NCBI GenBank assembly: GCA_029288895.1 | Contig: JARIGK010000004.1 | Span: 77,621 to 141,620 of the forward strand | DNA: 64,000 nucleotides | Origin: Candidatus Adlerbacteria bacterium | GTDB taxonomy: Bacteria; Patescibacteriota; Minisyncoccia; Phycocordibacterales; SBAW01 | Direction: 5' to 3' | Shown here: positions 99 through 9,621 of the stretch, in pieces | Layout of the letters: every line of letters starts with the position of its first letter | How positions within the stretch are numbered: the first letter of the stretch is position 1 | Position numbers and translations under genes: made by a program | The notes under the pieces: model-generated | Databases searched by the model: none | What the model was told of the DNA's origin: nothing | Seen by the model: the letters and a program-made list of their open reading frames with translations, nothing else

Positions 99-587
99 AT
101 GCAAAAATATGTTGCAGAAGGCGATACGCGTAATGATGCATATTTCTACTCCGCAGATACTATAATTATTGATGGTCTGTACCGTGCTCGAGCTATGGCA
201 TTGAGTAGTCGGATTTTGAAGAATAAGACCCCTTCTGACATTGAGCCGTACTTCAAAGCGGTTCAGACCACCATCGATCAATTCAAAGCTAAAGGTCAGG
301 ATATGAACCTGCCTGCAGTTGAAGCTGCCGTATTGAGATGGAGGTTTGCCTATGCTGATTTCCTACTAACCAATTTCGGAAACACACGAAACTCCTCTAT
401 TGTGACGCTTCTCGCCCCGTTTGGGTCTGCGGACGCCACTTCACCGGAAATAATAGGTCGACTAGAATCAATTGCTCTTATACCAACATTGAGCGCAAAC
501 GATCCGACCGTAGTAAAGGCAAAGAATTTGGCCGCAATCTCGCCTGAATTCAAAGCATTCTTGGTAGCAGAGGGAGTGAAATTCTAA
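99..587 (+). CDS. hypothetical protein (162 aa)
   Basis: Long ORF with ordinary, not low-complexity, composition. No recognisable motifs. Confidence 0.35.
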   Translation: MQKYVAEGDTRNDAYFYSADTIIIDGLYRARAMALSSRILKNKTPSDIEPYFKAVQTTIDQFKAKGQDMNLPAVEAAVLRWRFAYADFLLTNFGNTRNSSIVTLLAPFGSADATSPEIIGRLESIALIPTLSANDPTVVKAKNLAAISPEFKAFLVAEGVKF

Positions 588-1294: not shown

Positions 1295-2692
1295 CTAAAG
1301 AATCTTTTTCCCGGGGCGCAGAGGGATGAACTCGATAGCCGGTGCCACATAGTCAAGAATCCATTGGAATTCATTTTCTATTGCTTCGGCAGTGTGCGCA
1401 TATTCAATGGCGCTGTCCCATATGGAGAAGTTGTCCATACCAATGAGTCCGACGCGTTTGGTGCCCATCATGACCGCTATACGGGCCGCCTGAGCAGGGG
1501 AAAGCGATGAATGCTCCCAAATACTACGATCCATACCTTCGCCCGAGCGCGAAAGATGGTTTGCTGCAGAAATAAAGAGCATGTCCGGGTTCATACCCTG
1601 GACAACATCCCACATCGGATGAAGGTTCAAAAGGTTTTTATCAGTATTGGCACACGCATCGGTGATGTGTACAAAATGATGTTCTGGAGTTTTTACCTCA
1701 AACCCAAGGTGGCCTCGTTGGGGATTGGTAAAAGCACGGATGGTGAGATCGGGGAATGAATATTCGCGGGCTTCGTTACTTGCCTCAAATGTTATTTTTT
1801 CGTACAGATCTCCCAGTGCTGCTCGCAACCATGCATGATCATCTTCGGAGAGTGCAGGGCAGATAACTCGGATTGGTTTCAATCCGGCAAATTTGCGTAT
1901 CGAGCCAAGCGGCGCATGATGGGTATGGAAGTGCGAAAGAAGAATAATGTCTGGTGTTAAATCGATCCCTTTAAACACGGGTCGAGGAATCAAAAAATCT
2001 ATCGTACGCTGGAATGGCTGCAAGCCGCGCAGTACGGGGTTTTGGAACGTAGAAGAGTAAAGCCATGGGTCGACAACAAGCGAGCCATGTTCCGATTTGA
2101 GCCATACGCCTGCATGGCCAATAAAACGCAAACCAGGAGAAAATTCTTCCGTTGGATGAGTGCCTCGGTCAAGCTTTTTTAGAACATCCTGTGCTGCAGG
2201 GGATAGAAGTTGCATATACGGAACGTAGTGGTTTATTTCGAGCATCGTATCCTCATACATGGTGCCTGAAAGATGGTCTAGCGCGTTTGCAAGGAGCATA
2301 TGCAATAAACCGGACATTTCTTCCTGTGTCAGCACGATGGGGGCGTGGGTATCTTTATGGAGAGCTGTATATTCCCCCGGATTTGTTTTTGATGAAAAAG
2401 ATACCCGATCAATGACGGAAAATAGAGAAACTAAATGCAGTGCCTCGTCGCCGATAAGAAGCTGAACATGCTCCAAATCGTTTTTGTCTAGAATTTTTTC
2501 TGTAAAGTGTGACGTCCCGAATGCAGAATGGAAGAGCCCAGCTAACTGCACTGTTTCCGGCACTCTCCATGATGCAAGCGTTTCCTCTACTCGAGACAGG
2601 TGGTCAAAGAGAGTTCCGCCGCGCACATGCCGTATTTTATTAGCACCTTTGGAGTTTAAAAACGCTTTGGCAGTGAGGGTGGTAAGCGACAT
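1295..2692 (-). CDS. fusion protein: HD-like N-terminal domain + MBL-fold metallo-hydrolase
   Basis: 465 aa. The middle region 'DIILLSHFHTHHAPLG' is an HxHxDH-like metallo-beta-lactamase motif embedded in an 'AGVWL..SLVVDPW' Lactamase_B_3-like context. The N-terminal ~180 aa are helical and HD-like. Confidence 0.5.
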   Translation of the reverse strand: MSLTTLTAKAFLNSKGANKIRHVRGGTLFDHLSRVEETLASWRVPETVQLAGLFHSAFGTSHFTEKILDKNDLEHVQLLIGDEALHLVSLFSVIDRVSFSSKTNPGEYTALHKDTHAPIVLTQEEMSGLLHMLLANALDHLSGTMYEDTMLEINHYVPYMQLLSPAAQDVLKKLDRGTHPTEEFSPGLRFIGHAGVWLKSEHGSLVVDPWLYSSTFQNPVLRGLQPFQRTIDFLIPRPVFKGIDLTPDIILLSHFHTHHAPLGSIRKFAGLKPIRVICPALSEDDHAWLRAALGDLYEKITFEASNEAREYSFPDLTIRAFTNPQRGHLGFEVKTPEHHFVHITDACANTDKNLLNLHPMWDVVQGMNPDMLFISAANHLSRSGEGMDRSIWEHSSLSPAQAARIAVMMGTKRVGLIGMDNFSIWDSAIEYAHTAEAIENEFQWILDYVAPAIEFIPLRPGKKIL

Positions 2693-4559: not shown

Positions 4560-4689
4560 AGCTATAAACTAACGAGTAAAAAGGTGTTTGCCCTGCGCCC
4601 CTAGTATAGCTGGTGCAAAAAACCGCGCAACAGAGCCACGGGGATAGAAAAAATTGACAAATAGTATTTTTATTTCAAAAAAGTGCAAT

Positions 4690-4730
4690 AAAAAAGCCCC
4701 CGCACATGTTGCGGGGGCTTACTTTTTGGC
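4690..4730. terminator. terminator hairpin (gcccccgcaa-catg-ttgcgggggc + TT)
   Basis: 10-bp GC stem with a T-run, downstream of the minus-strand gene 4741..5262. Confidence 0.6.
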
Positions 4731-4740
4731 AAGAATTGCC

Positions 4741-5262
4741 CTACGCGGCCATCGGAAGTCCCAGCCGAACCGAGGATTTCTCGAGCCACGACCCAACCAC
4801 GTTATTGATCAGGAACTCCAAGGTCGCACATTCTGCGTCGATCACCCTCGAGCCTTCGTTGGGGTAGTCGAAGATGGCAACGCCGGGGTAGTGTTGGTAG
4901 TTGGGCGCCTCGTCTTTCCCTCCCCAGAACACTTGCGACATCATAATGCACATGGCGCGCATCGTGGGGGAGCTCTTGTGGAGCGAAAAACCGCCTTCCC
5001 GGACAATCGACAGAGCCTGGTAGGGCTTATGAGGATGGCTCCCGAGTTCAGCGAGATTGTTCATCCGGCAGGAGTATTCCATCCCATCCAAACGGCTCAT
5101 AGACGGTGGCTGGAGTGGGATAGCCCTCTTCTTTACTTCCTCGAGATGGAAGTCCTCGGGGAGATACAGGTGCTTCTCCAGTGCTTTGGTGATGTGGAAT
5201 TTGACCACACGGGGGTTAAACCCGCCCGTGTTGTAAAAGATATGAATCTTGTTCGACAACAA
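4741..5262 (-). CDS. hypothetical protein (173 aa)
   Basis: ORF with a strong AAGGAGG upstream on the minus strand (5266-5272). TTG/ATT start ambiguity. A terminator lies immediately downstream. The overlapping + ORF 4654..5397 runs through the terminator and is rejected. Confidence 0.45.
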   Translation of the reverse strand: MLSNKIHIFYNTGGFNPRVVKFHITKALEKHLYLPEDFHLEEVKKRAIPLQPPSMSRLDGMEYSCRMNNLAELGSHPHKPYQALSIVREGGFSLHKSSPTMRAMCIMMSQVFWGGKDEAPNYQHYPGVAIFDYPNEGSRVIDAECATLEFLINNVVGSWLEKSSVRLGLPMAA

Positions 5263-5439
5263 TGCCTCCTTACGTGGCGAACTGCCGAAGCGACTCTAGC
5301 AAAGATGAGGTATATACGCAAAACGTCCGCCATCCCTGGCCAGCCAAAGGCCAACCATATGGGACAGAGGACGTCTGCGCGAACGAATCCACACTAATTA
5401 TACACAAAAGCGTGAACAAGTCATGAAGTAGAAAACTTT

Positions 5440-6186
5440 TTACGATTTATTCCACACCATCTCAAAAATTTCTCGCACAGTTTTTGCAACATCAGCGTTT
5501 TCTATCGCAACACCTTGGAGATTTTTATAATCTTGGATGCGTACCACATCGCCCACGACATCAATTGCCACTTCTGATGAGTATTGTTCGTAGGGAACTG
5601 TCTTTACTGTGCGGTTTATGCCTGCGTCCATGTCGCGGTAGTCCTTTAGCGAGTCATGCGCGGGGGCAATAACGCGTTGCTGTATATTGTTTTTCTTGAT
5701 AGACGCCACCCATTCGTTTTTGAAATAGCGAACGAGTTCTGGGTCGGCATTCATATCTGTCGCATAAAACCCAACCAATTCTTTGCCGGCCCCGTCCTTT
5801 AAGCCATATTCGAGCAGCTGCTTTACACCCTCGATGCCTTCGTAATAGAGAGTACTTACTTTTGTTGGCTCGCCGCGGGTAAGCGCAAGCAGTTCGGGTA
5901 GCTTTTCTTTTGCACGGGCAAACTTATCTTCGGCAGATGCAAAGACATCCTGTGGCGAGTGGGGGATATACAACTGTTTTTTAACGCGCGGGACGCGTGA
6001 AGCCAATCCTTTCTCTATAAGCTCGTCCAAAATCACGTAGGTAGTTGGCTTCTTGAGCCCGCTTTTGAGCGCAATCGAATATGCCGAGCCGCGCCCGAGC
6101 TGTAGCAGCGCCAAATACACTGCCGTCTGCTTATCTGTGAGCCCAATAGTCTGCAATGCCTCAGTTAATTTCACATCTATAAGCAT
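5440..6186 (-). CDS. TrmB family transcriptional regulator
   Basis: N-terminal wHTH 'LTDKQTAVYLALLQLGRGSAYSIALKSGLKKPTTYVILDELIEKGL' is typical of TrmB, with a C-terminal TrmB-like sensor domain. ATG at 6186 is preferred over the TTG at 6210. Confidence 0.7.
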   Translation of the reverse strand: MLIDVKLTEALQTIGLTDKQTAVYLALLQLGRGSAYSIALKSGLKKPTTYVILDELIEKGLASRVPRVKKQLYIPHSPQDVFASAEDKFARAKEKLPELLALTRGEPTKVSTLYYEGIEGVKQLLEYGLKDGAGKELVGFYATDMNADPELVRYFKNEWVASIKKNNIQQRVIAPAHDSLKDYRDMDAGINRTVKTVPYEQYSSEVAIDVVGDVVRIQDYKNLQGVAIENADVAKTVREIFEMVWNKS

Positions 6187-6290
6187 AAACCTATAGCTAT
6201 TTTTAGTCAATATTTTTGATGAATTTTGCCTATTTATCTAAAATACGTTGGAATATAGAGCCGTTTTAGATATTTTTATAGCCCTTTAAA

Positions 6291-6318
6291 TTGACTTTTC
6301 TCCCAAAACTGGCATAAT
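6291..6318 (+). promoter_or_regulatory. sigma70-type promoter TTGACT-N16/17-cATAATg
   Basis: TTGACT (6291-6296) and CATAAT/ATAATG (6313-6318) in an AT-rich intergenic region, followed by AGGAGA (6349-6354) and ATG 6360. Confidence 0.55.
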
Positions 6319-6359
6319 GTATGCAGTTCAACAGTTCATCGAAACATAGGAGATACTCA

Positions 6360-6632
6360 ATGCTCTACATTTGCTGGTACGAGAAAAGTGTTGTTGAGGA
6401 AGTTAAGGAAAAGCCTGCTGAAGCTACGGGACCGGTAAAAGTTGGCGGCCTCACGAGGTGGCCAGAACGGGGTGGTTATGCCGAACACCCAATTCCTAAA
6501 CAGGAGGAATTTGCTTCCTTCGAGGAGGCAGTGGCTTACTTTAAGTCATGGGAAAAGGAGAGGGAGAATTGGAACCGTTCAATCCAAGTCCTTCTAGTCC
6601 CAGCTGACTTCAAGTTTCCTCCGTGGTGGTAG
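6360..6632 (+). CDS. hypothetical small protein (90 aa), first ORF of the 6.2-8.1 kb small-ORF islet
   Basis: AGGAGA 6 nt upstream of ATG 6360. The ORF track's longer version (6321) lacks an RBS. Confidence 0.45.
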   Translation: MLYICWYEKSVVEEVKEKPAEATGPVKVGGLTRWPERGGYAEHPIPKQEEFASFEEAVAYFKSWEKERENWNRSIQVLLVPADFKFPPWW

Positions 6633-6718
6633 CCCTTAGCTGAACGGGATGTCTTTAGAGAATTTTACGACGGAGCTAACATGATCTTCTCGTAAAAACC
6701 TACTACATCTCAAAATTT

Positions 6719-6800
6719 AGGAGGTCGAAATTCGTCGACCTCCTCTCTATTGAGTCTTTGAAGAAGTTCGAAGACTCATCGAGAACAGATCTTTAACACA
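6719..6800 (+). repeat. intergenic module copy 1: stem-loop (aggaggtcga/tcgacctcct) + TCTCTATTGAG + semi-conserved ~45 nt ending AGATCTTTAACA
   Basis: Perfect 10-bp hairpin 6719-6744. The 11-mer at 6744-6754 is identical in all three copies. 'ctcatcgagaacagatcttta' matches copy 2. Confidence 0.6.
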
Positions 6801-6822
6801 CCGCCCGAGCGCGGAGCAATAG

Positions 6823-7230
6823 ATGGAGATACAGATGTTCGAAGTTGGAAGCAAGTCTTTCGTCGAGTTCGTCAACGAGCTCAAGGCCGAATATGTTGCT
6901 CGCAAGGCAGCCTATGACGCAACCCCGGAATACAAAAGGTTTGATTGGGATGATAACTATATCGAACCCCCAATCGACCCGAGTACTCTTCCGGAGGAAA
7001 CTCTGAAAGAGAGATACGAGTCTGTGCGCAGCTTTGAAGCCAGTAGGGCCAGAAGCGATGCAGTTCGTGCGGAGCGTGAATTTATCCGCAAAACCTGCTT
7101 CCCGCTTCCAGATTACTGGGAGCACAACTCTTCCTCAGGGAAGAAAAGCGTAACTGTCATGATAGATGGGAGAACGAAAGGGCGAGAAGGCCCCACCACC
7201 TACATGCTCCAAATTGCGCCGCGCACATAG
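6823..7230 (+). CDS. hypothetical protein (135 aa)
   Basis: ORF between module copies 1 and 2. Weak GGAG upstream. Acidic/helical composition. Confidence 0.45.
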   Translation: MEIQMFEVGSKSFVEFVNELKAEYVARKAAYDATPEYKRFDWDDNYIEPPIDPSTLPEETLKERYESVRSFEASRARSDAVRAEREFIRKTCFPLPDYWEHNSSSGKKSVTVMIDGRTKGREGPTTYMLQIAPRT

Positions 7231-7245
7231 GAGGACGTGCGAATA

Positions 7246-7320
7246 GGAGAAGCCCCAGCTTCTCCTCTCTATTGAGAACTTGAATAGTCGAGTTCTCATT
7301 GAGACTAGATCTTTACATAC
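7246..7320 (+). repeat. intergenic module copy 2: stem-loop (ggagaagc/gcttctcc) + TCTCTATTGAG + ...CTCATTGAGACTAGATCTTTACAT
   Basis: Hairpin 7246-7265 with compensatory stem changes relative to copy 1. 11-mer at 7266-7276. Confidence 0.6.
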
Positions 7321-7329
7321 GAGGCAACA

Positions 7330-7590
7330 ATGCACGTCAATCGCGTAACAATTGAAAGCTTGGAGGGCGTAAGCTCTATCTACAAGCAGCGCCTTATTGC
7401 TGCCGACATTCCTCACGTCAGGCGACTGATTGGATGGTGGGGTTCGGAACATCTGTGCGAGGTGCTTGGAAACAAGCATAAGCAGGCATGTTTCCAACTC
7501 GAGCACGCGCTGAAAAAGCTCGGCTATGAGTTTTGGTTCGAGCCGCATTTGCGCAAAATCGAAAAAGTAGAAGTTGTTACGGGAACGTAA
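7330..7590 (+). CDS. hypothetical protein (86 aa)
   Basis: ORF following module copy 2. No similarity to its neighbours. Confidence 0.45.
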   Translation: MHVNRVTIESLEGVSSIYKQRLIAADIPHVRRLIGWWGSEHLCEVLGNKHKQACFQLEHALKKLGYEFWFEPHLRKIEKVEVVTGT

Positions 7591-7674
7591 CAGCCAACTA
7601 CTAAACGCTGCAACTTCGAGGGTAGCGCCTCGATAGATAGAGAGAAGTCCTTCTCTGTCGAACCTAAAGGCACT

Positions 7675-7745
7675 GGGCGAGTCCACATGGCTCGCCCTCT
7701 CTATTGAGTTCGCGAAATAGTTCGTGAGTTCATTGAGAAGGAGTA
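7675..7745 (+). repeat. intergenic module copy 3: stem-loop (gggcgag/ctcgccc) + TCTCTATTGAG + ...TTCATTGAGAAGGAG
   Basis: Hairpin 7675-7697, 11-mer at 7698-7708. There is an additional small hairpin agagaag/cttctct at 7641-7656. Confidence 0.55.
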
Positions 7746-7751
7746 GCAAGG

Positions 7752-8033
7752 ATGGTTTGTAGAAAGTTTGAAGTGTATAAGGAGTTCACACTTGTGATTC
7801 CGGACGCTTCGCCTGGCGAAGAACTGATAGATTGCTACTATGTTCTTGCTAAAAAGCTCTATCATTTTCCAATCGGAAAAGATTACACATCAACGAGTAT
7901 CAGAGAAAATGATGATGTGTATGTCACAATTAAGAAAGGAGAATTGTTAATAAGCACTGGAGAGATAAGCTGGGTTGCGCTTGCAGAGCTGTGCAATTTA
8001 AGAAGGATGGAATGGCTCAACGACGACGAGTGA
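7752..8033 (+). CDS. hypothetical protein (93 aa)
   Basis: ORF after module copy 3, followed by a strong terminator. Confidence 0.45.
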   Translation: MVCRKFEVYKEFTLVIPDASPGEELIDCYYVLAKKLYHFPIGKDYTSTSIRENDDVYVTIKKGELLISTGEISWVALAELCNLRRMEWLNDDE

Positions 8034-8039
8034 TAATAC

Positions 8040-8078
8040 AAAACCGCCTCGCAACAACCGAGGCGGTTTCTTTTTTTA
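8040..8078. terminator. rho-independent terminator (aaaaccgcctcg-caacaa-ccgaggcggttt + T9)
   Basis: Long GC stem plus 'ctttttttat'. Bidirectional, sitting between the islet and rny. Confidence 0.8.
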
Positions 8079-8088
8079 TGTAATCTTA

Positions 8089-9621
8089 TTAGCGGGCAAA
8101 CTCTATCGCTCTGCTTTCACGAATGACGTTTACTTTGACTTCGCCCGGATATTTGAGTTCGTTTTCGATGCGGTTAGCGATGTTGCGAGCAAGCTCGCGT
8201 GCTTGGAAGTCCGTCATTTCGTCTGGTTTGACGAAGACGCGTACTTCGCGGCCAGCGGAGATTGCGTAGCATTTCTCGACGCCAGGGAAGGAGGTTGCAA
8301 TTTCTTCTATATCGCCCAAGCGCTTCAAGTACTGCTCGACGCTGTCGCGGCGGGCACCTGGGCGGCCGCCTGAAATTGCGTCCGCAACCTGCACGATGAT
8401 CGATTCCACCGTTTCGTACGGGTACTCTTCGTGGTGCGCCTGCATTGCCTTGACGACTTCTTCTGAAACGCCAAACTTCTGCAAGATGCGGCGGCCGATT
8501 TCCACATGGGTACCGGTGACTTCGTGGTCGAGCGCTTTGCCAATGTCGTGGAGGAGGGCGCCTGCTTTTGCAACCTGGACGTTTGCGCCCATTTCCTCGG
8601 CGATCATGCCGGCGATATGAGCCATTTCCGTTGAGTGCTGCAAGACTGACTGGCCAAATGACGTGCGGAAGTGGAGGCGGCCCAAGATCATCATGAGACG
8701 TGGGTCCAAGTTAAGGACGCCCGTTTCAAAGCAGGCAGCTTCGGCCTTTTCTTTGATGATCTTAGTGACATCGGCCTTTGCCTTTTCGACGTGCTCTTCG
8801 ATCTTTGCTGGCTGGATGCGACCGTCCAAGATCAAGTTTTCAAGCGCCATGCGCGCCACGGCGCGGCGAAGCGGGTCGAACGATGAGAGGACGATCGAGC
8901 CTGGTGTGTCGTCGATGATAACTTCAACGCCCGATGCGCGTTCAAACGCTTTGATGTTGCGCCCTTCTTTGCCGATGATTTTGCCTTTGATTTCGTCGTT
9001 CGGGATAGTAACCGCAGTTGCCATCGTGTCTGCAGCAACCGAGTTGCCGAGACGGTGGATAGCAGTTGTGAGGATTTCTTTTGCACGGCGCTCGACGCGT
9101 TCCATGCCGTCGCGTTCAAGCTTGGCAACGCGGACCATCAAATCTTCGCTCGCTTCTTTTTCAAGCTCTGAAAAAAGCTGTTCTTTTGCTTGGTCTTTGG
9201 TAAGGCCTGCAACGCGCGCAAGTTCCGAGGTGCGCTCGGAAAGGAGGGCCTGCGCCTTTTCTTTGAGCGCGGCAACTTCTTCGATGCGCGCTTTCACAGC
9301 AACAATTTCAGCATCAAGCTCGGCTTGTTTTTTGTCGAGCTGCTCCTCGCGTTTAAAGACACGGTCTTCGGCGCGAGTAATTTTCTCTTCCTTTTCCCTG
9401 AGGTCTGCGTCGGCTTGGGCAAGTTTTTGCTTCGCTTCCTCCTCTGCTTTTTCAGTTACAGCTTTAGCCTCAACTTGCGCATTGAGTAAACTTTGCTGTA
9501 TTTCTAACTCGAGAGAGTTTTTACGAGCGCGTAAAACGAGGAGACGGAGCCAGTAACCGATTCCAGCGCCCAACAGAAGCGCCAAAAGGCCCACGAGGGC
9601 CACTATTGTCTTGGTAACCAT
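8089..9621 (-). CDS. rny: ribonuclease Y
   Basis: N-terminal TM helix, a long coiled-coil, a KH domain ('IIGKEGRNIKAFE') and an HD domain ('HSTEMAHIAGMIAEEMGANVQVAKAGALLHDIGK'). Confidence 0.92.
   Translation of the reverse strand: MVTKTIVALVGLLALLLGAGIGYWLRLLVLRARKNSLELEIQQSLLNAQVEAKAVTEKAEEEAKQKLAQADADLREKEEKITRAEDRVFKREEQLDKKQAELDAEIVAVKARIEEVAALKEKAQALLSERTSELARVAGLTKDQAKEQLFSELEKEASEDLMVRVAKLERDGMERVERRAKEILTTAIHRLGNSVAADTMATAVTIPNDEIKGKIIGKEGRNIKAFERASGVEVIIDDTPGSIVLSSFDPLRRAVARMALENLILDGRIQPAKIEEHVEKAKADVTKIIKEKAEAACFETGVLNLDPRLMMILGRLHFRTSFGQSVLQHSTEMAHIAGMIAEEMGANVQVAKAGALLHDIGKALDHEVTGTHVEIGRRILQKFGVSEEVVKAMQAHHEEYPYETVESIIVQVADAISGGRPGARRDSVEQYLKRLGDIEEIATSFPGVEKCYAISAGREVRVFVKPDEMTDFQARELARNIANRIENELKYPGEVKVNVIRESRAIEFAR

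Follow-up and report, generated by a model that had tools for sequence, protein, structure and literature searches.

What is the role of a hairpin module that is repeated between small genes showing no similarity to one another? The question is raised by an islet at positions 6211-8080 of the window, that is, the whole 64,000-nt stretch analyzed here (Candidatus Adlerbacteria bacterium, contig JARIGK010000004.1, positions 77,621 to 141,620). The islet lies between a gene for a TrmB-like regulator (5440-6186, minus strand) and rny (8089-9621, minus strand; identified with Pfam). It consists of four open reading frames (ORF1 to ORF4) and three copies of the module, all on the plus strand. The module appears to represent a family of RNA motifs not described before, which occurs in Parcubacteria and is tied to hypervariable arrays of small genes beside TrmBL2-like regulators. 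It is well supported that the module is a selected hairpin in the sense-strand RNA and not a protein-binding site in duplex DNA. As for its function, the modules are tentatively interpreted as intercistronic punctuation or processing elements in the polycistronic RNA transcribed from a promoter at 6291-6318.

The three modules occupy 6719-6798, 7245-7318, and 7675-7738 (Table 1). A preliminary description of this locus reported that a hairpin and an identical 11-mer, TCTCTATTGAG, precede each of the last three ORFs, and this was confirmed. The 11-mer occurs exactly three times in the window (6744, 7266, and 7698), always on the plus strand and within the islet. When one mismatch is allowed, one further match is found elsewhere in the window, where ~0.7 is expected by chance. 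The first hairpin (HP1) is perfect and GC-rich, differs in stem sequence from copy to copy, and is separated from the 11-mer by 0-1 nt. The preliminary description also recorded a semi-conserved stretch of ~45 nt. The stretch is indeed conserved, but it is not a mere flank. It belongs to a second hairpin (HP2), of which the 11-mer is the 5' half, and a T-rich box behind it is a separate element.

In HP2, TCTCTATTGAG is the 5' foot and CTCATYGAGA is its partner. The layout is TCTC, TAT, TGAG, variable stem, tetraloop, variable stem, CTCA, TY, GAGA. In the RNA, UCUC and GAGA form the stem of the foot, UAU lies opposite UY in a 3x2 internal loop, and UGAG with a variable arm of 7-8 nt pairs with the complement of the arm and CUCA. 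The tetraloop is GAAG or AUAG in the window modules. The fold z-scores of modules 1, 2, and 3 are -5.1, -5.2, and -4.3 for the plus strand, and -3.2, -2.8, and -3.3 for the minus strand. The reverse complements fold worse because several of the pairs are G.U. Module 3 is preceded by an 80-nt extension, which is 74-77% identical at the nucleotide level to the extensions in L039 and L101 (L numbers denote related loci), with compensatory changes. The region 7606-7752 folds with a z-score of -4.5. In module 3, a Shine-Dalgarno (SD) sequence, AGGAG (7739-7743), directly follows HP2, and there is no box.

A covariance model was built from 23 copies (A2, R1). Searched with this model, the window and 22 related loci yielded 37 copies, of which the window contributed just the three already known. 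In these 37 copies, 93.8% of the cells are paired (model-fitted alignment A5, which inflates the percentage somewhat). The independent MAFFT alignment A2 gave 94.6%. Twelve of the 16 pairs of HP2 have changed on both sides. Compensatory cells number 99, against 33 +/- 5 in shuffles. Sliding the pairing register by 1-3 columns leaves 29-51% paired. The foot of HP2 itself covaries: L085 has ACTC...GAGT together with TCAG...CTGA, L100 has ACTC/GAGT, and L098 has TCCT/GGGA. Among the pairs, there are 53 G.U and 10 A.C. The conserved halves lie 19-26 nt apart. Of 36 copies, 34 have HP1, with a stem of 7-12 bp and 0-1 nt between its end and HP2. The foot of HP1 is in most cases GGAG...CUCC, and its loops are often GNRA- or UNCG-like. 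The HP1 hairpins of module 1 in the window, L098, and L100 are orthologous (GGAGGTCGR-AATTYG-YCGACCTCC), again with compensatory changes. So many compensatory changes, in 37 copies from many genomes, bear out the earlier claim of selection on structure rather than recent duplication.

The covariation, the excess of G.U over A.C, and the better folding of the plus strand together place the hairpin in the sense-strand RNA. Because the spacing of the halves varies, a hairpin is also favored over a dimeric site on DNA. An operator or nucleation site in duplex DNA for the TrmBL2-like protein, or a fusion of terminator and promoter, would account for the outer halves being an inverted repeat and for the TrmB-like gene always being nearby. 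A precedent is offered by the PeSL (promoter-early stem-loop) modules in hyperplastic regions of T4-type phages, reportedly described by Arbiol et al. in 2010. They too are conserved stem-loop modules that flank novel, unrelated small ORFs, and probably mediate shuffling by homologous recombination. The modules in the islet, however, have no promoter, are selected at the RNA level, and reside in a bacterial genome beside a TrmB-like regulator. The half spacing varies by 7 bp while the center covaries to keep pairing, and in duplex DNA a G.U to A.C ratio of 53:10 would have no meaning. At the promoters, it is another palindrome that is conserved, and no phage match was obtained. These duplex-DNA explanations are extremely unlikely. 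A promoter in the module was looked for and rejected: no module contains a -35/-10 pair, although the host consensus is clear. The fusion of a terminator to a promoter, one of the candidates in the preliminary description, is not upheld, as the modules have no sigma-70 promoter and the array promoters of nine relatives are canonical (TTGACA-17-TATAAT).

To see where the module occurs, an exact-pattern scan covering 185,579 species genomes was carried out. It gave 79 loci, mostly chance or coding-sequence matches; about 10 are real. Genuine modules, with HP1, HP2, and the box, are in metagenome-assembled genomes (MAGs) of Adlerbacteria (L039/L060 and L052) and Peribacteria (L036), and in MAGs labelled "uncultured Bdellovibrionales" (L020, L023, L046, and L073). 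This label may be unreliable. L092, a metagenome contig, carries a module near-identical to one in the "Bdellovibrionales"-labelled MAGs. The scan of metagenomes added ~12 loci. Several matches were dismissed as chance, having neither HP1 nor HP2: a thrice-repeated coding segment in a Draconibacterium MAG (L072, 4073-5815), a conserved coding region in many Collinsella/Eggerthellaceae genomes (L008, L011, L012, and others), and all four matches from the pattern scan of IMG/VR.

With the covariance model, every module found belongs to a TrmB-linked array and lies on the coding strand. The modules mark fast-changing arrays of small genes in Adlerbacteria and in many other ultra-small (CPR/Parcubacteria) relatives. 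A dispersed repeat similar to repetitive extragenic palindromes (REP) or miniature inverted-repeat transposable elements was rejected on the same grounds. REP elements and the mosaic elements built from them (BIME), BOX, and Correia repeats resemble the modules as repeated intergenic hairpins able to stabilize upstream mRNA. They are, however, genome-wide and in both orientations, whereas the modules are found in one operon type, in the sense orientation only, with three copies in the 64 kb of the window, all of them in the islet. Rfam 15 gave no gathering-level match in a search of the whole window, and at E<=1 it gave only chance-level matches in 5000-9000 (E 0.45-0.54, ~21 bits against thresholds of 43-58). 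In 13 related loci, Rfam matched tRNAs only, and the Rfam searches found no rRNA gene in the window or in the related loci examined. BLAST searches with the islet against INPHARED phages and PLSDB plasmids returned no match. A full-text literature search on the 11-mer and on Patescibacteria/TrmB/hairpin returned nothing relevant.

The modules lie between ORFs and are always co-directional with them, except for the terminal module of L106. An SD sequence and a start codon follow shortly downstream in 27 of 30 modules. The first cistron of an array has the leader box alone and never the hairpins. The last cistron is followed by a canonical terminator with a long U-run and no module. Nearly all proteins encoded next to the modules are orphans without relation to one another. 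A few are single receiver (REC) domains. The protein in L084 (module 470-529, minus strand) matches the response-regulator receiver family PF00072 (E = 7e-9). In L020 (module 1725-1785, minus strand), two ORFs are REC-like by eye; the one that was scanned, downstream of the module, has no Pfam match.

The gene content of the arrays differs from genome to genome. The interval between the TrmB-like gene and rny contains four ORFs and three modules in the window, three ORFs and two modules in L060, and two ORFs and one module in each of L098, L100, and L101. No ORF is common to these intervals except ORF2, which has a homologue in L101 (1868-2245; 47% identity over 133 aa). In that array it stands at the head, directly behind the conserved promoter and leader, unlike in the window. 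Around the orthologous module 1 of the window, L098, and L100, the ORFs on either side are non-homologous. The ORFs of the relatives are replaced precisely between the SD sequence and HP1. The module is the constant part of these arrays, and the ORFs are the variable part. As a description, the "cassette boundary" of the earlier account is apt.

Such turnover raises the question of an attC-like cassette recombination site, which would take its folded form in single-stranded DNA, where a site-specific enzyme would cut and join it. Like attC sites of integrons, the modules are imperfect palindromes with structure conserved over sequence, conserved outer inverted repeats, a variable center, and unpaired bases, and the unrelated, promoterless small ORFs stand behind one promoter. 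The precise replacement of ORFs between the SD sequence and HP1 also fits, as does the phospholipase D (PLD), or nuclease-type, fold in the neighboring protein. That PLD-like domain, however, lacks the HxK(x)4D motif, as judged from the sequence and the A4 invariant columns. No tyrosine or serine recombinase, transposase, or HUH gene is listed in the flanks, and no recombinase Pfam family is among the called genes of L098-L107. The attC cores RYYYAAC...GTTRRRY were not found in the modules, whose ends are TCTCTATTGAG...CTCATYGAGA. There is no site after ORF4 or after the last ORFs of L060, L098, and L101, and the first ORF has only the 3' leader part. The G.U-rich stems indicate RNA. Orthologous modules persist while the ORFs on both sides change, which is the opposite of what is expected for a cassette of an ORF plus its site. 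Homologous exchange between the conserved modules of 60-115 nt and the leaders would be sufficient for the turnover. An attC-like site is thus very unlikely. Together with the duplex-DNA explanations, the DNA-level alternatives are quite improbable. A more speculative proposal, for which we see only a slim chance, is that the TrmBL2-like protein and the modules form an integrase-free gene-cassette system specific to the Candidate Phyla Radiation (CPR). In that case, the protein or a partner would recognize the HP1/HP2 junction in RNA or transiently single-stranded DNA, process the transcript, and catalyze or target the exchange of small orphan genes. If so, it would be a dedicated hypervariable locus for reduced-genome symbionts.

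Among the three candidates of the preliminary description, a cis-regulatory RNA or conserved 5' untranslated region (5'UTR) fits best, since the asymmetry of G.U pairs puts the structure in the sense-strand RNA. A role in processing or punctuation is suggested because the modules are strictly internal: the first cistron has only the leader, and nothing but a true terminator follows the last. For an element acting purely at 5' ends, or purely at 3' ends, another distribution is expected. In this interpretation, HP1, with its free stem sequence and a foot that is usually GGAG...CUCC, and HP2, with its UCUC/GAGA foot, UAU/UY loop, free upper stem, and stable tetraloop, would abut and stack into a rod of ~25-30 bp. 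A single-stranded leader for the next cistron would follow, composed of a boxA-like box (RGWUCUUUNAA) and the SD sequence GGAGA. The HP1/HP2 junction would be the site of recognition and cleavage, by an RNase III-type enzyme, by RNase Y guided by the hairpins, or by another dedicated RNA-binding factor. Cleavage would yield cistron-sized mRNAs with hairpin-protected ends. The box may load NusB/NusE-type factors or act as an A/U-rich enhancer, so that polymerase and ribosomes continue through the long untranslated gaps. The module may also serve as a homology anchor for the exchange of small orphan genes, because it is the only conserved sequence in these arrays.

The geometry of an RNase III site, about two turns of double-stranded RNA with an internal loop at an intercistronic position, is present: HP2 has 16 bp and a 3x2 loop, and HP1 of 7-12 bp abuts it. 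The early polycistronic mRNAs of phages T7 and SP82 contain intercistronic RNase III hairpins with an internal loop, which protect the mRNA ends after cleavage. As in these phages, related hairpins with an internal loop recur between small genes of one transcript, and the copies are similar in sequence. The modules differ in being chromosomal in CPR bacteria and not phage-borne. HP2 is shorter (16 bp and the loop), and another hairpin invariably accompanies it. Its foot sequence is kept even between distant genomes, more than the specificity of RNase III by itself would demand.

The box behind HP2 invites a comparison with antitermination sites. It is AGATCTTTAACA in module 1 and AGATCTTTACA in module 2, starting 2-6 nt after HP2. 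The string given in the preliminary description as "AGATCTTTA.A" is this separate box, which resembles boxA (GYTCTTTAANA). An equivalent box stands in the leader of the first cistron, which is unstructured in the window (fold z-score +1.0). The leader box is kept in L085, L098, L100, L101, L039, and L092, and the first-cistron leaders carry GWTCATYRAAACA where the modules have the box. The box and the small hairpin of module 1 are kept in the module of L098 and in the leader of L100; the latter aligns with the window module 1 box and the CCGCCCGAGYGCGG hairpin. In the low-GC group of L023, L046, and L092, the box is followed by a conserved hairpin, GCGAAATCATTCGC, and then AACC (e.g., L092 3775-3795). 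This hairpin recurs in the first-cistron leader of L092, and its Adlerbacteria counterpart is CCGCCCGAGYGCGG (window 6801-6814).

The consensus GYTCTTTAANA was derived for gamma-proteobacteria from rRNA and suhB sites, and has served in searches for boxA elements no more than 50 nt from start codons (PMC5725501). Over the first 30 nt behind HP2, it is matched with at most one mismatch in 4 of the 37 modules, at most two in 20, and at most three in 30. In random 30-nt windows from the same loci, the corresponding frequencies are 0.4%, 2.5%, and 13.8%. A perfect match, GTTCTTTAACA, is present in L084. Other boxA-like strings near 51-56 kb of the window are antisense inside coding genes and were dismissed as chance.

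In rrn leaders, a hairpin is followed by boxA. In rrn-type and lambda nut sites, a boxB hairpin and boxA load NusB-NusE/S10, and non-rRNA boxA elements are known in 5'UTRs (suhB, CRISPR leaders). The modules are similar in that a box matching boxA comes only a few nucleotides after a hairpin, in the nascent sense RNA and <=50 nt upstream of a start codon, and in that the box sits in long untranslated stretches otherwise exposed to Rho. The modules are unlike them in being repeated before each cistron of a protein-coding operon. The two abutting hairpins with a conserved foot have no counterpart in nut. Some copies have no box, and in first-cistron leaders it is altered.

These features allow another interpretation, processive antitermination at a leaky terminator. 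HP1 and UCUCUAUU would be a weak intrinsic terminator, and the hairpin and boxA would act as a nut-like (rrn boxB-boxA) site, making the polymerase resistant to termination over the following stretch and the distal cassettes Nus-dependent. The enrichment of the boxA-like box right after HP2, in the same order as in rrn leaders, would be explained. The GC-rich HP1 runs into a tract in which 5 of 8 positions are U, and the terminator scan flags module 3. The terminal module of L106 has a better U-tract and no downstream ORF, and untranslated gaps of 100-190 nt would face Rho. However, the tract is poor: only module 3 passes the 5-of-8 U criterion of the scan, whereas genuine array terminators have 8-10 consecutive U directly after the stem. 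A polymerase that reaches the first module would have met only the divergent leader box, with CAUC for CUUU. Module 3 has no box, and boxA alone leaves the conserved foot of HP2 unexplained. This interpretation is considered unlikely. A generic intrinsic terminator, which the preliminary description had named as a possible refutation, was rejected; there are three copies in 64 kb, all internal to one operon, and the last ORF uses a different, canonical terminator.

The other constant feature of the arrays is the TrmB-like gene, a systematic link across genomes that the preliminary description had missed. The gene is found within ~2 kb of the modules, usually divergent, at every locus with enough upstream sequence. 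The link was also approached in reverse, by looking up the genomic contexts of eight TrmB-like homologues. Small-ORF arrays with modules are beside orthologues or paralogues of TrmB in L100, L101, L102, L105, and L106. L098 has a diverged module, recognized by eye, and L103 has a weak variant before a gene for a periplasmic-binding protein. In L106 (1-12747), five TrmB-like paralogues lie in 12.7 kb of one Patescibacteria contig; some are beside orphan small ORFs and modules, and others beside Peripla_BP_6 and methyltransferase genes.

The protein in the window matches PF01978 (E = 8e-12). It is identical to a 248-aa database protein (P0001) and has 498 homologues, mostly from Parcubacteria. 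An N-terminal TrmB winged helix-turn-helix (wHTH) domain is followed by a coiled-coil and a PLD-like C-terminal domain. In its AlphaFold2 model (predicted local distance difference test, pLDDT, 87), the best PDB match is TrmBL2 5bqt (also 5bpd), over the full length with E = 1e-13, and the C-terminal domain resembles NucT/PLD3. TrmBL2 is an archaeal chromatin protein and regulator. The neighboring protein is a member of the TrmB/TrmBL2 family rather than an orthologue, because the scores for the NCBIfam TrmB/TrmBL1 equivalogs are far below the cut-offs. No RNA-binding domain was detected in it.

It is possible that a dedicated RNA-binding protein, conceivably this wHTH/PLD protein, binds the HP1/HP2 foot and controls translation of, or elongation into, the next cistron. 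PyrR and BglG-type proteins act in this way at sites repeated within one operon. The foot and the internal loop (CC|UCUC UAU UGAG...CUCA UY GAGA) are invariant in most copies while the rest of both stems is free, the apical loops do no more than cap the stems stably, one operon can hold several copies of the element, and a TrmB-like gene is present at every informative locus. Nevertheless, the foot is unchanged among loci whose TrmB-like proteins are widely divergent (E 1e-6 to 1e-125), and paralogues also stand beside ordinary genes without modules. In the orthologous modules of L098 and L100, the foot and the internal loop are replaced by other pairs. The absence of a detectable RNA-binding domain points in the same direction. 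Moreover, an obvious TrmB operator is available in a DNA palindrome, GTCAATATTTTTGAT, kept family-wide at the divergent promoters. It stands at the same place upstream of the TrmB-like genes in L085, L092, L039, L098, L100, L101, L103, and L106, and is conserved in every TrmB-like locus examined (e.g., tagtcaataattttgataa and ctgtcaacaattttgacaa). It is likely to be an autoregulatory operator of the Parcubacteria TrmB-like family. Most likely, the TrmB-like protein controls the divergent promoters via its own palindromic operator, and it probably does not act through the modules. A riboregulator of this kind is unlikely, to about the same degree as antitermination.

Several points weigh against intercistronic processing, to which we return as the tentative interpretation. 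We infer cleavage, factor binding, and read-through alike. The pairing percentages from A5 are somewhat inflated by the fitting, although the independent alignment gave a similar value. The foot is identical in most copies, from genomes with 30-50% GC; hairpins recognized by generic RNase III, or acting as stabilizers, do not need this, and it points to a sequence-specific partner. The likeness of the box to boxA is sequence resemblance only, and the box could be explained just as well by an A/U-rich (S1-type) translational enhancer. Several other copies besides module 3 have no box, and the first-cistron leaders have CAUC where boxA has CUUU. The last module of the L106 array (6874-6932, minus strand) has no ORF after it, and a convergent tRNA gene is located at 6785-6855. 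Behind its HP1 comes CUCUUUUAAG, which as a U-tract is better than those of internal copies, and the module may be a terminator-like derivative.

Other candidates for the module were tried and rejected. A mini-ORF or leader peptide in HP1/HP2 is inconsistent between copies. Mimicry of the 3' end of 16S rRNA by CCUCCUCUCUAUU holds for module 1 only. TIGR- or CRISPR-like guide arrays do not fit, as the period of 430-520 nt is filled by SD-led ORFs. A known self-cleaving ribozyme is not indicated, there being no Rfam match.

Table 1. Coordinates of the features of the islet and of its TrmB-like flank in the window.
Feature	Position	Strand	Description
TrmB-like regulator gene	5440-6186	-	248 aa; wHTH and PLD-like C-domain; divergent from array
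Palindrome GTCAATATTTTTGAT	6206-6220		~20 nt upstream of TrmB-like start codon; unrelated to modules
Array promoter	6291-6318	+	TTGACT-16-(TG)CATAAT; near-consensus, upstream TG; promoter scan
Leader box GTTCATCGAAACA	6334-6346	+	First-cistron 5'UTR; position equivalent to post-HP2 box
ORF1	6360-6632	+	90 aa; orphan; no tblastn match in related loci
Module 1 HP1	6719-6744	+	10-bp perfect hairpin aggaggtcga-aattcg-tcgacctcct
Module 1 HP2	6744-6784	+	TCTC/GAGA foot, UAU/UC internal loop, 12-bp upper stem, GAAG loop; covariance model 72.9 bits
Module 1 box GATCTTTAACA	6788-6798	+	One mismatch to GYTCTTTAANA
Small hairpin CCGCCCGAGCGCGG	6801-6814	+	After module 1 box; then SD GGAGA (6825-6829)
ORF2	6835-7230	+	131 aa from ATG 6835; alternative ATG 6823 gives 135 aa
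Module 2 HP1	7245-7266	+	aggagaagc-ccca-gcttctcct
Module 2 HP2	7266-7304	+	Fold; covariance model 67.7 bits
Module 2 box GATCTTTACAT	7308-7318	+	Three mismatches to GYTCTTTAANA
ORF3	7330-7590	+	86 aa; orphan
Module 3 upstream extension	7594-7674	+	Two hairpins: TCGAGG-gtagcg-CCTCGA (7616-7633) and GATAGAGAGAAG..CTTCTCTGTC (~7636-7659)
Module 3 HP1	7675-7697	+	gggcgagtc-cacat-ggctcgccc, one G.U
Module 3 HP2	7698-7738	+	Three G.U pairs, foldable only as plus-strand RNA; covariance model 55.9 bits
ORF4	7752-8033	+	93 aa; orphan
Intrinsic terminator	8041-8079 (stem 8041-8069)	both	Canonical; 11-bp stem and T-run; ends array; common to convergent rny; terminator scan

As first described, the four ORFs show no similarity to one another, and the ORF listing and family searches agree on this. 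None of them has a family match in Pfam, PHROGs, PADLOC, or NCBIfam. ORF2 probably starts at ATG 6835, because the homologue in L101 indicates so. Against 5.8 billion proteins, ORF2 gave a self-match alone, and its single-sequence AlphaFold2 model is uninformative (pLDDT 49.5). An exhaustive phmmer search of 1.84 billion representatives with ORF4 gave, besides the self-match, only three weak matches to repeat proteins and no other homologue. These matches (E 1e-9 to 5e-5) involve 7-10 stretches of three large repeat proteins of 458-2183 aa. The multi-stretch matches suggest that ORF4 contains a short repeat-type motif.

The near-consensus promoter before ORF1 and the strong terminator closing the islet, both noted in the preliminary description, agree with the promoter and terminator scans. 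Promoters of the form TTGACA-17-TATAAT are at the equivalent place in nine related arrays, and the arrays of L060, L098, and L101 likewise end in equivalent terminators. The AT-richness is true but modest: the GC content is 46.2% in the islet against 52.3% in the window, and the islet is the lowest-GC 1.87-kb segment of the window. The low value is mainly due to the promoter region (31%) and ORF4 (40%), with ORFs 1-3 at ~50%. The neighbors in the window are TrmB, HU, rny, clpP, and tig. The interval between HU and the TrmB-like gene (4654-5397) is a second variable spot. It has long overlapping ORFs on both strands, of 247 aa (plus) and 173 aa (minus). In relatives, the gene content of the interval differs: it encodes a 173-aa protein in L060 and PDT/DUF3298 in L100, and contains nothing in L098.

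The module combines traits of nut-like sites, phage processing hairpins, and PeSL shuffling modules, but is a member of none of these groups. To our knowledge, almost no regulatory RNAs have been characterized in CPR/Patescibacteria, whose genomes are tiny. Here, a short and well-defined motif outside Rfam covaries strongly, is restricted to one operon type, and has been kept at loci whose protein content was replaced completely from genome to genome. If the interpretation as a processing element is true, the module would be a portable "expression adaptor", by which unrelated small genes, newly acquired or newly born, are expressed from one regulated promoter. A search for the RNA, rather than for the proteins, would then find hypervariable arrays of small proteins, probably related to interaction or conflict, in uncultivated bacteria. 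It would also raise the possibility of Nus/boxA-type control in protein-coding operons outside Proteobacteria.

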